The notes under the pieces: generated by a model | The model's database searches: none | What the model was told of the DNA's origin: nothing | Seen by the model: only the letters and a program-made list of their open reading frames with translations | Program-made: the position numbers and the translations under genes | Assembly: GCA_036339735.1 (NCBI GenBank) | Contig: JAYZAL010000011.1 | Coordinates: forward strand, 1-64,000 | Length of the DNA: 64,000 nt | Direction of reading: 5' to 3' | Source: Candidatus Poribacteria bacterium | GTDB lineage: Bacteria > Poribacteria > WGA-4E > UBA9662 | In this document: piece by piece, positions 46,417 through 51,121 of the stretch | Position numbering within the stretch: position 1 is the first letter of the stretch | How the letters are laid out: every line of letters begins with the position of its first letter

Positions 46417-46667
46417 TTGTGATTATAAATTATTTTTCAGTGTTCAATGTAGTCAAAGCAGAAAATAACAAAAGAACTTACATGAAGAGGTCGTTCATTG
46501 AAGTACTACTTGTCTGGGAAACTGTCTATTTTCCATACAGTACCCGCGGGGTACTGTAATACGTAACTCTTTAATTCTCAATTCGACCGACCTTGACGTT
46601 GATCACATGAAAATCACACAAATGGAGTTGAGTCATAGTAGATTCCACCTTCAATAAATTTTGAGAG

Positions 46668-47633
46668 CTATCTTTGTGAGCTAAAAAAATCAACCAAATC
46701 AGTTCCGTGTGTTTTGGTGTTCAATTGTTTTTCGATTTTCAAAATTCTCCCCTGCATATCAATGTATACAGCCATTCGTTCGCTAGTCCTACTAGACGCT
46801 TCGTCTGCTGCCCCAAATAACAAGCTCAGATTCCTATCCACATCAACCAACAGTGGAAAATTAAGTCCATCACGGTCAACAAAGCGCCTGTGTGATTCGG
46901 CATCCTGCACCGAAACACCAAACACTTGGATCTCCAAATCATTAATTTGACTCATCTCATCCCGGAGAGAGCAAACCTGCGCCGTTCAGCCAGGAGTCAT
47001 ATCCATAGGATAAAAAGACAAAACCACATTTCGCTTATTTCTAAAATCCCTGAGCCGGTAACCTTTACCATTTTCATCGTAAGCTACGAAATCAGGAGCT
47101 AGGTGGCCAACATTTATCTCATAGCTAGTCATGGACTGGATTGTTTCCAGTACTTCTGTTCCATGTTGTGGAATATTGACATTGTTATTGATAGAGCGAA
47201 CATACCCAGCTCTATCAACAACAAAGGTAGTCCGACTCGACTTTTGTTTGTCAGCTGATATACTGGAATATAATCGAGACACAACCAAATCATTATCAGA
47301 TAGAAGAGGAAACCCAAATCGATATTGCTCCTGAAATTCATAATGAGATTCTTGACTATCACCACTAATACCGTAAACCATGGTTCCTGTTGCTTCAATT
47401 TTTGTCAACTCGTCACGGAGAGACTCGAGTTCAGAAGTTCAACCACCAGTAAAATCTTTAGGGTAAAAAGCTAACACCACGTTCCGTTTTCCCCAGTGCT
47501 GGCTGAGGCTCTGTTTGTTACCAGACCCGTCCTTTAATTGAAAATCAGGCGCAACCATTCCAACGACAACTTCTCCTCCCGCTGTGGGGGAAAGAAGTGT
47601 ATCTCGTCTCTGAGTAACCATCTCTTCTGTCAT
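46668..47633 (-). CDS. Tandem two-domain BCP/PrxQ peroxiredoxin selenoprotein (321 aa, predicted Sec65 and Sec216)
   Basis: Track ORFs 47439-47786, 46986-47408 and 46668-46955 share one frame, separated only by TGA at 47441-47439 and 46988-46986: FYPKDFTGG-U-TSELESLRD and FYPMDMTPG-U-TAQVCSLRD. ATG 47633 has AAGGAG RBS; ends at TAG. Confidence 0.9.
46955..46970 (-). promoter_or_regulatory. Candidate SECIS for second peroxiredoxin UGA
   Basis: TCTC-TC-CGG-GA-T-GAGA bulged hairpin beginning 16 nt after UGA, G-containing loop. Confidence 0.55.
47407..47431 (-). promoter_or_regulatory. Candidate SECIS for first peroxiredoxin UGA
   Basis: CTC-TC-CGT-GA-C-GAG at the same offset as the second site; alternative longer pairing AACTC/GAGTT plus GTC/GAC. 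Confidence 0.5.
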
Positions 47634-47737
47634 TTCAAGCTCCTTTTTTATTAGCTGAATTTTGTCAGCTTCGGAAGTTGATAGAAAAAAAGTAACTAGT
47701 AGAGCATACTTAATACTAATCTTAAAACCTAATGAGA

Positions 47738-47754
47738 TAGAACCACCGGTTCTA
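47738..47754 (-). promoter_or_regulatory. Candidate SECIS for FmdB-like gene
   Basis: Perfect TAGAACC-GGT-GGTTCTA hairpin starting 13 nt after TGA 47769-47767. Confidence 0.65.
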
Positions 47755-47973
47755 GTTTGGAATGGTTCAGCCGACAGGGGTAGCACAGTTGGTTCCCCCT
47801 GAGCTTAGTGAATTGGTAGTTTGACCACAGAAGGTTGAAAGTATCTTTTTGGGGTTAATTGCCCCACACTGAGGGCATTCTAATTTAGCAATTTCCTCAG
47901 TCGTAACATTCATAGGTTGCAATAATTCAAACCGGTCTTGACACTGACTGCATTGATACTCGTAAAGTGGCAT
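47752..47973 (-). CDS. FmdB-family zinc-ribbon protein, probable selenoprotein (73 aa if UGA69 is Sec, otherwise 68 aa)
   Basis: MPLYEYQCSQC..FE..CPQCG..KKILSTF; tail GGTNCATPVG-TGA-TIPN-TAG. Confidence 0.8.
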
Positions 47974-48024
47974 TTTCTTTCTTACTTCCTTATGATATAA
48001 TTCACCCTTGTAGGAGCGGTGGTT

Positions 48025-48054
48025 ATTATAAAGAGAAAGCCACATATATTGCAA
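48025..48054 (-). promoter_or_regulatory. Sigma70-type promoter for the FmdB-peroxiredoxin operon
   Basis: Minus strand TTGCAA-18 nt-TATAAT, about 50 nt upstream of ATG 47973. Confidence 0.6.
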
Positions 48055-48080: not shown

Positions 48081-50195
48081 TTGATTAGTTGGTGTTGGCT
48101 ATCGTTTCTTCTGTTTTTTGGGTCGTTTTTTTTGGAATCGAATTCCTCATTGGCAGCTCCCCCCAATCCCTATTTTTTCCTTTCTCATCAATCAGGAAGT
48201 CCCGTCGAGTATTCATCCGATTGGCTTAATCAGGCACCTAAGTTATCATCACACAAGCAGTACTTATCAGCTCTTGATGGATGTTGTTTTCAACGACCTA
48301 CTACGGTTTTGCAACCTGACGGTGTAGAGTTCGTGCTAGCAATTAAAATCGACTTCTCTGACCAGGTGGGATCTCGCCGTGGAAACCAGCTCAACGGATA
48401 CTTATTTGATGACCAAGGAGTTTCTCTAAAAACCTACTACAGAGAAGTATCTTATGGCCAAATGGATGTTCAGCCAGGACCGGCCGAGGGTATAATGCCG
48501 AAAAAAGACCGTTGGGTTCGTGCGAAACACCCAATGTCATACTACGGAGATGGTAAGCATAACGTCGCTCGCTACCGAGAATTAGTACGAGAAGCTTGCC
48601 AAGGCATTGATAAAGAAATTAATTTCGTTGACTATGATCGAAACAAAGATGGAATTATTGACCATTTGTTCATCGTTCACGCTGGAGATGATGAGGCTTC
48701 GACATTTACGGGTACATTTGGACCAAATATATGGTCGGTTTTAGTTCCTAACATCAATACCACCTTTGATGGGGTGAAAATAGATACGGCTGTCTTGGTT
48801 GCTGAAGAACCAAGTTTTAAACATCCCCATTTAGGCATCTATTTTCATGAATTTTTTCACGATTTTGGAGCTCCCGACGTGTATGGTTCACCAATGATCG
48901 ACGCTCGAGATCACAAGTGGGGTTTAATGGGCATGTATGGTCCTTACCAAGGAAATATAACTAATGGTCTTGGGGACGGAATGAATCCCAGCCATATAAT
49001 TGGGTATTTGAAATGGGATTTTGACGCCAGACCAGAAAACGGACGAAAAGGATGGTTGAAACCAACAACGATCACTGAAGATATACTGAATTATTCATTG
49101 CCATGTATCGAATTGAACCCATCTTTACTTAAGATTAAAATTTTGGATCGGCCAGACGAATTTTTTCTGCTAGAGAATCGCCATACCAGATCGGGAGCTA
49201 GATTTGATCGGTATCTGCCTGAGTCCGGACTTCTAATTTGGCATATTGATGAAAGTAAGGTGCGTTCGGCTTACGCTGTTGATGCAGCGCAGCAGATATG
49301 GTTAGAGGATCCAAACGACCCCAACCATATGGGCCAAAGCCCAACTGATCCGAGTCAGAGAAATATGAGTTATATTTCCGACGGTGCGGCGTATTCGGCA
49401 GATGACGAACAAACATCCTTCATGCAATCAACCAACCCGAGCAGTCAGGCTAATGATGGAACACCAACGGGTATTTCAATCACTAACATCAGTCGAGAAG
49501 GTACTATCATGTCGATGAATTTCGCGACAGGAGATACTTACGAGCCTAATAATAATTTTTCTACCGCTTTCCCATTGGAAATTGGGCAGTCATATCCATC
49601 CTTCATTTTTTCATCTAGTGATATTGATTATTACCGTTTTCAGCCGATTGATTCAGCTACTTTACTCTTTCAATTGACAGATATTCCTGAGAATCATAAT
49701 TATCGGTTACAGATTTATGATCAGAACCAAATCTTAATTGCCGAAGGAATAGACCCAGGAGCCTCTTTTTCAGCCAGCCGTCAAGTTGCATATCAAGCAA
49801 AAGCAGGACAAATCCTATATTTGGCTATTCGATCAGAATCGGGATTCAGTCAGCAATTAGCTTATCAAGTCAGTATTCAAAAACTAGTTGGTCAAGTCGG
49901 ACTACTGAATATTGCTAGAATGAAGATCTTCCCCAATCCGGTCTATCTTGGTCGAACCTTGACTTTATCCTATACAATCTCGGATTTTCAGACTGCTGAT
50001 CAGTTAATTTGGGAAATATACACTATGGGCGGGGACTTAATTCACACAGACTTAGAAACCGAAGTAGTGGGTTCTGGCCGTTTTATTTGGGCTGTTAACG
50101 ACACTGCAGCGGGTGTCTATATTCATTCGCTAGTTGCACAAAGAAATGGTGAATCTCATCAAATCAGTGGTAAAATCGCGGTCGTGGGCAACTAG
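48081..50195 (+). CDS. Secreted M6 (immune inhibitor A-like) metalloprotease with PPC-like and C-terminal sorting-like domains
   Basis: YYREVSYG, YDRNKDGIID..VHAG, HEFFHDFGAPD, FLLENR, GLLIWHIDE, DTYEPNN, IFPNP..GVY..GKIAVV. Confidence 0.88.
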   Translation: MISWCWLSFLLFFGSFFLESNSSLAAPPNPYFFLSHQSGSPVEYSSDWLNQAPKLSSHKQYLSALDGCCFQRPTTVLQPDGVEFVLAIKIDFSDQVGSRRGNQLNGYLFDDQGVSLKTYYREVSYGQMDVQPGPAEGIMPKKDRWVRAKHPMSYYGDGKHNVARYRELVREACQGIDKEINFVDYDRNKDGIIDHLFIVHAGDDEASTFTGTFGPNIWSVLVPNINTTFDGVKIDTAVLVAEEPSFKHPHLGIYFHEFFHDFGAPDVYGSPMIDARDHKWGLMGMYGPYQGNITNGLGDGMNPSHIIGYLKWDFDARPENGRKGWLKPTTITEDILNYSLPCIELNPSLLKIKILDRPDEFFLLENRHTRSGARFDRYLPESGLLIWHIDESKVRSAYAVDAAQQIWLEDPNDPNHMGQSPTDPSQRNMSYISDGAAYSADDEQTSFMQSTNPSSQANDGTPTGISITNISREGTIMSMNFATGDTYEPNNNFSTAFPLEIGQSYPSFIFSSSDIDYYRFQPIDSATLLFQLTDIPENHNYRLQIYDQNQILIAEGIDPGASFSASRQVAYQAKAGQILYLAIRSESGFSQQLAYQVSIQKLVGQVGLLNIARMKIFPNPVYLGRTLTLSYTISDFQTADQLIWEIYTMGGDLIHTDLETEVVGSGRFIWAVNDTAAGVYIHSLVAQRNGESHQISGKIAVVGN

Positions 50196-51013
50196 ATGAT
50201 CAGTTTTATCCGTTCTTGATCAGACCGAGAAAAACGGCTGAATATAGTTTGTTGAATAGTTGTAGTATCATAACGACGGGACAAGTGGGTTAACACCACA
50301 TTTCGACTTTTAATTTTCGGCATTATCTCGACTATTTGATCCAGATGTAAGTGCATGGTGTCGCTAGCCTTTTTTCGATCCTCAGGAAGGATAAATGTAC
50401 ACTCAGAAATCAAAGTTGGAGACTCAGCTAGAAGTGGGTGGTCATTCATCGGAATAGTGTTGGTATCACCTAAGTAAGCAACCTTAGGGAGCTCAACTTG
50501 ATGAGTCACTGTAACACCAGATTTTTTTAGGGAGGCAATTTCTGAACCCCTAAGTTGATGGAACTCGGGTTTTAGCTTTTTTCTCACTTCACAAATCAAA
50601 TAACCAACTGATGTTACCCGGTGAGTTAATGGTAAAACATAAGCGACCAAATTGTTTCGGAACTCAATTCGGTCATTGGGTTTGACAGGTATGAGTTCGT
50701 ATGTCCAAAGGCTGTTACAGTCTAACTTAGAAATCTGGTCTAAAATTTGGCTAATTTGTTGCAAGCCATCGGCTGGGACGAAAATTTTCCCTGGTGAAAT
50801 ACCGGCCATCCAACGTTGACTGATATAAATGGGTAAACCAAAATAGTGGTCTAAGTGAAAGTGAGAGATAAAGACATGGTTGGTACCAATAAAAGAAATT
50901 GGGCAACGTCCTAAATCGAAAATGAGATCAAGTTCTCCTATACGAAAGTAAGTAGAGATACCTGAGAGCGATTGGCCCTCAATAGTCAGGTCGTCACATT
51001 TCAATTCAAGCAT
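50192..51013 (-). CDS. Metallo-beta-lactamase fold nuclease, tRNase Z-like (TM-type motifs)
   Basis: EGQSLSG, SHFHLDH, THRV, KLKPEF, GDT, ECT, HLH, THLSRRY. Confidence 0.8.
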   Translation of the reverse strand: MLELKCDDLTIEGQSLSGISTYFRIGELDLIFDLGRCPISFIGTNHVFISHFHLDHYFGLPIYISQRWMAGISPGKIFVPADGLQQISQILDQISKLDCNSLWTYELIPVKPNDRIEFRNNLVAYVLPLTHRVTSVGYLICEVRKKLKPEFHQLRGSEIASLKKSGVTVTHQVELPKVAYLGDTNTIPMNDHPLLAESPTLISECTFILPEDRKKASDTMHLHLDQIVEIMPKIKSRNVVLTHLSRRYDTTTIQQTIFSRFSRSDQERIKLII

Positions 51014-51121
51014 ATAAACAACTAGCTGGATAAGGTTCATAATGATACATTAGCCTGAATTGGATTGTACATGTATTTTTAGAGAGGTTTGTAACAGTAA
51101 CAAGTTTTTGGAGTATAAAAG

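Follow-up and report, generated by a model that had tools for sequence, protein, structure and literature searches.

We analysed a 64,000-nt stretch of contig JAYZAL010000011.1 (the window) from a marine Poribacteria bacterium, in which a gene for a small FmdB-family zinc-ribbon protein and a gene for a tandem peroxiredoxin (Prx) lie adjacent and codirectional on the minus strand. The genome of the window is referred to as G000, and related genomes carry labels such as G001, G002 and G004. The evidence makes it likely that these are two separate, genuine selenoprotein genes, standing in tandem behind one promoter in a single pelagic lineage of the Poribacteria, probably co-transcribed, with their in-frame UGA codons decoded as selenocysteine (Sec). 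An undescribed, dedicated selenium-dependent two-protein module, as proposed in a preliminary description of this DNA, is not supported. The same description had claimed three Sec residues, and this is borne out by the conservation of the TGA codons, their catalytic positions, the hairpins that follow them and the Sec machinery of the genome. The promoter, the FmdB-like gene, the gap of about 118 nt, the tandem Prx gene and the downstream hairpin were likewise all found where it had placed them. The features of the locus, all on the minus strand, are as follows.

48025..48054, minus strand: sigma-70-like promoter, TTGCAA (48054-48049), 18-nt spacer and TATAAT (48030-48025), 10/12 matches
47974..48004, minus strand: conserved 5' leader with an AAGGAAG ribosome-binding site, nearly identical in four genomes
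47752..47973, minus strand: gene for the FmdB-family zinc-ribbon selenoprotein, ATG at 47973 to TAG at 47752, based on the open reading frame (ORF) and profile matches
47738..47754, minus strand: hairpin of the FmdB gene resembling a selenocysteine insertion sequence (SECIS), 7-bp stem and GGU loop, overlapping the stop codon
47634..47751, minus strand: intergenic gap of 118 nt, with no promoter- or terminator-like site called on this strand
46668..47633, minus strand: gene for the tandem BCP/PrxQ peroxiredoxin, ATG at 47633 to TAG at 46668, 321 amino acids, based on the ORF and profile matches
47407..47431, minus strand: SECIS-like hairpin after the UGA of Sec65, motif kept in orthologues
46944..46977, minus strand: SECIS-like hairpin after the UGA of Sec216, loop CGGGAU, motif kept in orthologues
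46536..46558, minus strand: strong hairpin 110 nt past the Prx stop codon, 10-bp stem and 3-nt loop, a possible 3' end

Selenocysteine codons in the two genes

The Prx is matched in two stretches by PF00578 (AhpC/TSA; 213 bits, cut-off 26) and by the BCP thiol peroxidase model NF006960 (173 bits, cut-off 140), and it stays below the cut-off of the PrxU equivalog model NF040737 (98 bits, cut-off 270). Its two domains share 38% identity. The residues of the PxxxTxxC motif and a conserved Arg are the catalytic residues of the peroxiredoxin family. Both domains carry this motif as PxxxTxxU (P58/T62/U65 and P209/T213/U216), with the TGA codons at 47441-47439 (Sec65) and 46988-46986 (Sec216) at the peroxidatic position; in the alignment, the conserved Arg is invariant in domain 1 (R134) and nearly invariant in domain 2 (R286). 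In alignments, the two UGA codons fall on the peroxidatic Cys position of the profile models and on a Cys in domain 2 of a distant tandem homologue (P0037). Judging from its sequence, the tandem protein is predicted to carry out peroxidase chemistry. Because Sec65, Sec216 and Cys221 are its sole Cys-like residues, domain 2 possesses a resolving Cys of the BCP type, five residues after U216, and domain 1 has none; the latter holds for the genome of the window and for the aligned orthologues. In domain 2, an intramolecular Se-S bond with Cys221 would be possible. Domain 1, as it lacks a resolving Cys, would need a partner from outside as reductant.

To define the distribution of the tandem Prx, 41 genomes of the same order were surveyed. 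A full tandem gene with exactly two TGA codons was present in 35 of them, spread over four families. The four genomes of genus g6 (G009, G012, G018 and G024) contain no tandem gene and have a single-domain Sec Prx with one TGA, which shares 56-58% identity with the second domain of the tandem protein and occurs twice in G024; the remaining two genomes gave weak matches. Full-length homologues in the databases read W at both Sec sites. These residues are the product of gene calling with code 4 on short contigs and are not Cys forms of the enzyme. The orthologue of G001 (L020 / L069) has an extra in-frame TAA in the first domain, which splits the ORF and reflects either a sequencing error or a mutation. 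Across the order there are numerous additional Prx-like matches that contain exactly one in-frame TGA, for example in G000 at C37:13075-13500 and C87:70976-71362, and an unusually large thioredoxin-fold selenoproteome in the Poribacteria is suggested.

A hydrophobic export leader stands at the start of the ORF in 17 of 20 orthologous Prx loci (L033 was read by eye), the exceptions being G000, G002 and G008. In G000 and G002, the leader-like residues IKYALLVTFFLSTSEA are found in frame upstream of the Prx, with the ATG replaced by ATT or ATC. In the window this hydrophobic stretch (47634-47720, from the ATT at 47714) matches the export leader of the orthologues and contains no ATG; between G000 and G002 it shows three synonymous and four non-synonymous differences. 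Ahead of the downstream ATG at 47633 stands an AAGGAG site in G000 and a weaker AAGAG in G002. Either export has been lost in these two genomes or a rare start codon is in use.

The FmdB-like protein of 73 amino acids contains CxxC motifs at residues 8-11 and 33-36 (C8xxC11 and C33xxC36) and was recognized by PF09723 (Zn_ribbon_8; 48.2 bits, cut-off 34.4) and TIGR02605 (52.5 bits, cut-off 31.3). With both profiles above their cut-offs, two CxxC motifs about 20 residues apart and a start at the initiator Met, it has the marks of the FmdB family. It begins directly at the first knuckle, without an export leader. An in-frame TGA (47769-47767), five codons before the TAG stop, corresponds to Sec69, which lies four residues from the end in a C-terminus of the form C-x5-U-T-I-P-N (ending GUTIPN). 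The TGA is followed by [AST][ILVT]P in 30/30 related FmdB loci; neither G001 nor the FmdB sequences of family f2 have the tail Cys. Low-complexity tails belong to the family description of TIGR02605. The best explanation is a cytoplasmic zinc-ribbon protein with a flexible, Ser/Gly-rich tail that ends in Cys-x5-Sec-x-[IV]-Pro, and this tail may have a thiol/selenol redox or metal-binding role.

A word-based homologue search with the 73-residue query returned just four close relatives, all of them cut at the TGA. The model NF041197 (dual CXXC motif small (seleno)protein) gave no match to the protein of the window at E values up to 1, and the relatives reached at most 16 bits against its cut-off of 40. 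A second FmdB(U) copy in the assembly (C35:5762-5977, ending SSGFNUAI) was rejected as a paralogue. The 7.2-kb contig C35 is probably mis-binned, because the proteins on either side of this copy share 95-97% identity with their counterparts in G005, which belongs to another genus, whereas other shared genes are about 50% identical.

The criteria of bSECISearch call for a stem-loop shortly downstream of the UGA, with a G in the apical loop. Such a structure follows each of the three UGA codons. In the Prx gene, the hairpin after Sec65, GCUCGCUC-CGGGAU-GAGUUGAGC, occurs at the matching place in 20/20 orthologous loci, and the hairpin motif of the Sec216 site in 19/19 loci where the motif was found; the consensus of the orthologues at both UGA codons is GCUCGCUC-CGGGAU-GAGUyGAGC. 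The FmdB hairpin begins 12 nt past the UGA, a distance similar to that in relatives (about 15 nt), and two of its three core pairs show changes on both sides of the stem among relatives (GC/AU/CG). Each UGA would be recoded by the ordinary bacterial SelB/SECIS route, via a hairpin 8-13 nt downstream. The genome encodes selB (362 bits), selA (579 bits) and selD (359 bits), all above cut-off, and selD carries one in-frame TGA of its own. A tRNA-Sec above the Rfam cut-off was found in 20/20 relatives, both genomes of the same genus included. TGA normally acts as a stop codon in this genome, as judged by long neighbouring ORFs (for example of 571 and 704 amino acids) that stay open when translated with table 11. 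No variant at any of the three TGA positions was seen in RNA-library contigs from four studies.

A widespread FmdB subgroup with C-terminal selenocysteine

When an FmdB profile was searched against 1.84 billion representatives, very many FmdB proteins were found to stop abruptly at G-F-[ST]. Metagenome DNA was scanned with a degenerate pattern, in which the FmdB tail GF[ST] is followed by TAA, TAG, TGA or TGG. The resulting counts are a sample: the matches listed comprise 121 loci, 114 of which end in GF[ST], and the figures given below refer to these. The codon after GF[ST] is TGA in all 114 loci (114/114), and TAA, TAG and TGG were each found in none. The stretch between that TGA and the second stop is mostly one to three codons long, usually [AG]x, and the second stop is mixed among the loci (TGA 40, TAA 39, TAG 34). 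At the loci that were inspected, a GC-rich hairpin lies roughly 10-20 nt downstream, mostly with a GGU-type loop, and the downstream fold has a mean z of -1.0 against shuffles over 111 sequences. Clustering of the neighbours of the 114 loci yielded no dominant partner; the biggest cluster comprised eight loci.

The NCBIfam models assigned to the metagenomic FmdB-Sec proteins, whether truncated or full length, were the generic TIGR02605 and an N-terminal domain model only. The accessible portions of the literature on zinc-ribbon, UXX-star or Poribacteria selenoproteins contain no mention of an FmdB ending with C-terminal Sec. A tblastn search of one FmdB-Sec candidate against plasmids gave four ordinary zinc-ribbon matches, in which the tail was uncovered. 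The FmdB subgroup with C-terminal Sec is widespread, it is absent from NCBIfam and from the selenoprotein catalogues searched, and its annotated stop is the Sec codon. A sub-type was noticed at five loci (L124, L125, L133, L136 and L137), where the tail reads GFT-U-G-T-S-[SG]-C and is followed by a second TGA; this second TGA may either create a two-Sec tail or act as a stop.

Transcription and gene order of the pair

The stretch is wholly or partly present in 20 of the 24 public runs listed, which come from 13 studies of seawater and marine metagenomes, and six of these 20 are recorded as metatranscriptomes. Contigs from RNA libraries of two studies cross the whole gap between the two genes, with at least 31 nt on each side (X15 record 5, 47262-47911; X17 record 10, 47393-47790), and a contig from a third study (X18 record 16, 47382-47755) reaches the FmdB stop codon. 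Upstream, contigs X17 record 11 and X18 record 17 start at the 5' leader, and contigs of two studies both end at 48005 with no loose end, some 20 nt downstream of the -10 box. On the minus strand, the 118-nt gap yielded neither a promoter-like nor a terminator-like call, and it contains no exceptional fold (z = -0.23 against shuffles). Because RNA-library contigs bridge the gap, co-transcription is likely, and the zinc-ribbon gene and the Prx gene are probably transcribed together as one mRNA. Hence, the part of the preliminary description that called the two genes an operon gains support: they stand behind one conserved promoter, and an operon is probable.

A promoter scan on its own is weak evidence in this region, as it called 9 promoter-like sites in 2 kb, compared with 4.2 +/- 2.1 for shuffled sequence. 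Across G000, G002, G001 and G004, both hexamers (-35 and -10) and the 30-nt leader are invariant, whereas the intervening and flanking sequence varies. At the other end of the unit, the hairpin at 46558-46536 has a folding energy of -14.9 kcal/mol (z = -2.5; 3 of 200 shuffles fold equally well), and the depth of the X15 contigs drops from 16.5 to about 3-5 across it. The hairpin has no U-tract and is not kept in the same-genus relatives G002 and G001. A 20-codon ORF at 46571-46633 with a good ribosome-binding site was rejected as a gene, its ATG being ATA in G002 and the ORF being absent from G001. An Rfam scan of the 2-kb region returned a single chance snoRNA match (E = 0.44) and no SECIS family.

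The FmdB and Prx genes are adjacent in 4 of the 35 tandem-Prx genomes (G000, G002, G001 and G004), which represent two genera of one family. The four genomes share a block consisting of a metallo-hydrolase, a divergent M6 peptidase, the zinc-ribbon gene and the peroxiredoxin. Among 20 Prx loci that were fetched with 1.5-kb flanks, four had the zinc-ribbon neighbour. For the 15 further genomes with the tandem Prx, the best FmdB match is 369 kb or more from the Prx or sits on a different contig; in G025 and G040, only weak FmdB-like matches were obtained. Conversely, no Prx fragment was detected within 1.5 kb at 26 other Poribacteria FmdB loci, and no Prx within 600 nt at the 114 metagenomic FmdB-Sec loci listed. 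Elsewhere, the neighbours of FmdB(U) are holA together with a gene for a CARDB-domain protein, a gene for an M3 oligopeptidase, a sulfatase gene together with a porin gene, or a gene for a CotH protein; the Prx is flanked by aroA on one side and aroK/aroQ on the other, or has a DAG-kinase-like gene next to it. Both genes are conserved across the order and stand apart outside the two genera. As adjacency is confined to 4 of 35 genomes and to one synteny block, it looks like a single rearrangement in the ancestor of the two genera, and one ancestral rearrangement is the simplest account that the gene orders suggest. The dedicated FmdB(U)-plus-Prx(U) module of the preliminary description is not supported by this comparison: adjacency is largely unconserved among relatives, the neighbours elsewhere are unrelated, and none of the 114 listed metagenomic loci has a Prx within 600 nt. 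Against such a module also speaks the export leader of most Prx orthologues, two of the four adjacent ones among them, which has no equivalent in the zinc-ribbon protein.

In the window, the M6 (immune inhibitor A-like) peptidase gene (48081-50195, plus strand) is divergent from the zinc-ribbon promoter, and a gene of the metallo-beta-lactamase fold (50192-51040, minus strand) lies beyond it. These two genes are syntenic in all four genomes having the FmdB/Prx pair.

Relation to known systems and alternative explanations

PrxU of Eubacterium acidaminophilum, a Sec-containing Prx of PF00578, resembles the Prx of the window in its fold, the PxxxTxxU motif, the conserved Arg and the Sec at the peroxidatic position. 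However, the protein of the window consists of two fused BCP/PrxQ-type domains and has two Sec residues and two SECIS elements per chain. In the accessible part of a review, the table lists one Sec for the Prx selenoprotein family (PMC13188914), and the available text of the Global Ocean Sampling (GOS) study gives 253 sequences for this family (PMC2398784). No description of a double-Sec Prx was found in the portions of the literature that were accessible.

FmdB selenoproteins were also predicted from GOS (Zhang and Gladyshev 2008), and they share the zinc-ribbon family TIGR02605/COG2331 with the protein of the window. In two GOS FmdB sequences, Sec is located in the first CxxC knuckle, as UxxU and CxxU at residues 8-11 (supplementary dataset, PMC2398784), and the review table, in its accessible part, lists the GOS FmdB selenoprotein as UxxU (PMC13188914). 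In contrast, the FmdB protein of the window has CSQC at this knuckle, keeps all four knuckle Cys residues and carries its Sec at residue 69 in the tail. Proteins of the UXX-star and GUXX-star type (NF041114, NF041211, NF041212) are similar to it in having Sec a few residues from the C-terminus, a position that places the SECIS of all of them at the stop codon or past it. Nevertheless, they are families distinct from FmdB, and their models matched neither the FmdB of the window (E up to 1) nor the full-length metagenomic FmdB-Sec proteins (E up to 0.01). For UXX-star and GUXX-star, a metal-binding or unknown role is suggested in the accessible part of the review (PMC13188914). The 'FmdB' of a paper on Planctomycetes (PMC4807772) is formylmethanofuran dehydrogenase subunit B, an unrelated protein, and was set aside. 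Neighbouring selenoprotein genes that are possibly co-expressed, as in the window, include the pairs Prx/SelW and Prx-like/AhpD-like from GOS (PMC2398784) and an operon of three selenoproteins, Tso (PMC13188914), both as given in the accessible parts of these sources. The pairing of FmdB with Prx is absent from the gene pairs and operons listed there, and at the locus described here it is confined to two genera.

An alternative explanation is that the two proteins form a functional redox pair, a dedicated module of this lineage in which the Cys-x5-Sec tail is a swinging selenol/thiol arm that resolves or re-reduces the selenenic acid of Prx domain 1. We regard this as unlikely. Mammalian thioredoxin reductase has a C-terminal Gly-Cys-Sec-Gly arm, and by analogy the zinc-ribbon tail, likewise a flexible Cys/Sec tail, could shuttle reducing equivalents; however, the two folds are unrelated, Cys and Sec are spaced as C-x5-U and not as CU, and a flavin domain is absent. 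Such a pair would fit with codirectional genes behind a conserved promoter in four genomes, with RNA contigs that span the gap, with a Prx whose domain 1 requires an outside partner because the chain has just Sec65, Sec216 and Cys221, and with the lack of an ATG-started export leader in G000 and G002. It fits less well with adjacency in 4 of 35 genomes, most simply the outcome of a single ancestral rearrangement, with the persistence of the genes apart everywhere else, and with the loci of G001 and G004, which combine adjacency with a leader-bearing and probably exported Prx. Furthermore, the tail Cys is missing in the G001 and family-f2 sequences, and the 114 listed metagenomic FmdB-Sec loci have no Prx neighbour. 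Given a domain 1 devoid of a resolving Cys and an enzyme that may here work in the cytoplasm, a redox partnership is conceivable in this sub-lineage, albeit with a low probability. That the G000/G002 sub-lineage in particular has a cytoplasmic, leaderless Prx whose domain 1 is recycled by the co-transcribed zinc-ribbon tail, acting as a dedicated selenol shuttle, is a long shot. On balance, the zinc-ribbon protein and the Prx are probably not physical partners.

A regulatory link between the genes is very improbable. Here, expression of the downstream Prx would follow the selenium supply, tuned either by how efficiently Sec is inserted at the first UGA or by the SECIS hairpin of the gap; the FmdB hairpin indeed occupies the beginning of the gap and precedes the leader-like in-frame stretch of the Prx by 37 nt. 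However, a similar hairpin accompanies FmdB(U) in all other contexts without Prx, the Prx start has its own AAGGAG site, and the fold of the complete gap is no better than that of its shuffles. Because the UGA is only five codons before the true stop, ribosome traffic should be almost unchanged either way, and the earlier idea that readthrough at this codon couples selenium supply to downstream expression is accordingly weak. Still less credible is the explanation that the TGA codons are true stops, leaving fragments or pseudogenes, or that TGA is read as another amino acid. In public databases, gene callers do break up the Prx or place W at its two Sec sites, and the tRNA-Sec was not found in the G000 assembly (34 tRNAs, 92% complete). 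Yet the TGA codons occupy catalytic positions conserved over four families, the hairpins are conserved as well, selA, selB and selD are present and the relatives have the tRNA-Sec. In addition, the long neighbouring ORFs are open under table 11, and the first stop is TGA in 114/114 listed FmdB-Sec loci while the second stops are mixed.

We therefore favour two separate selenoprotein genes that are transcribed together, and several observations, besides the tRNA-Sec missing from the assembly, weigh against this preference. Contigs from RNA libraries cannot prove a single mRNA, as DNA carry-over is possible. The pair and its promoter are kept in four genomes of two genera, and there may be selection for co-expression of the pair. 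The Prx of G000 and G002 has no ATG-started leader, and the enzyme could here be cytoplasmic and meet the zinc-ribbon protein. The Sec65 hairpin of the window is the weakest copy among the orthologues, and the three SECIS folds are no more stable than shuffles (z -0.5 to +0.7). Finally, the aligned FmdB tails include no homologue with Cys in place of Sec, and the Sec of the FmdB tail rests on the conserved TGA codons (30/30 related loci and 114/114 metagenomic matches listed).

The locus brings together two selenoprotein variants that are routinely mis-annotated. Annotation breaks the Prx into three pieces or assigns Trp to both of its Sec positions, and it ends the zinc-ribbon protein prematurely at the Sec codon. 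The pairing of FmdB with a double-Sec Prx is a lineage-specific gene order and not evidence of a new system, but it offers a hypothesis that is cheap to test, namely whether the tail reduces the enzyme. If true, a selenol shuttle of this kind would be the first function assigned to any FmdB-family protein, and the peroxiredoxin system would be one built wholly on selenium. The locus also led to the statistic on C-terminal Sec in FmdB proteins (114/114 of the loci listed). C-terminal Sec is a general feature of much of the FmdB family, which corrects many database entries, and this ending provides a handle on a family without assigned function.

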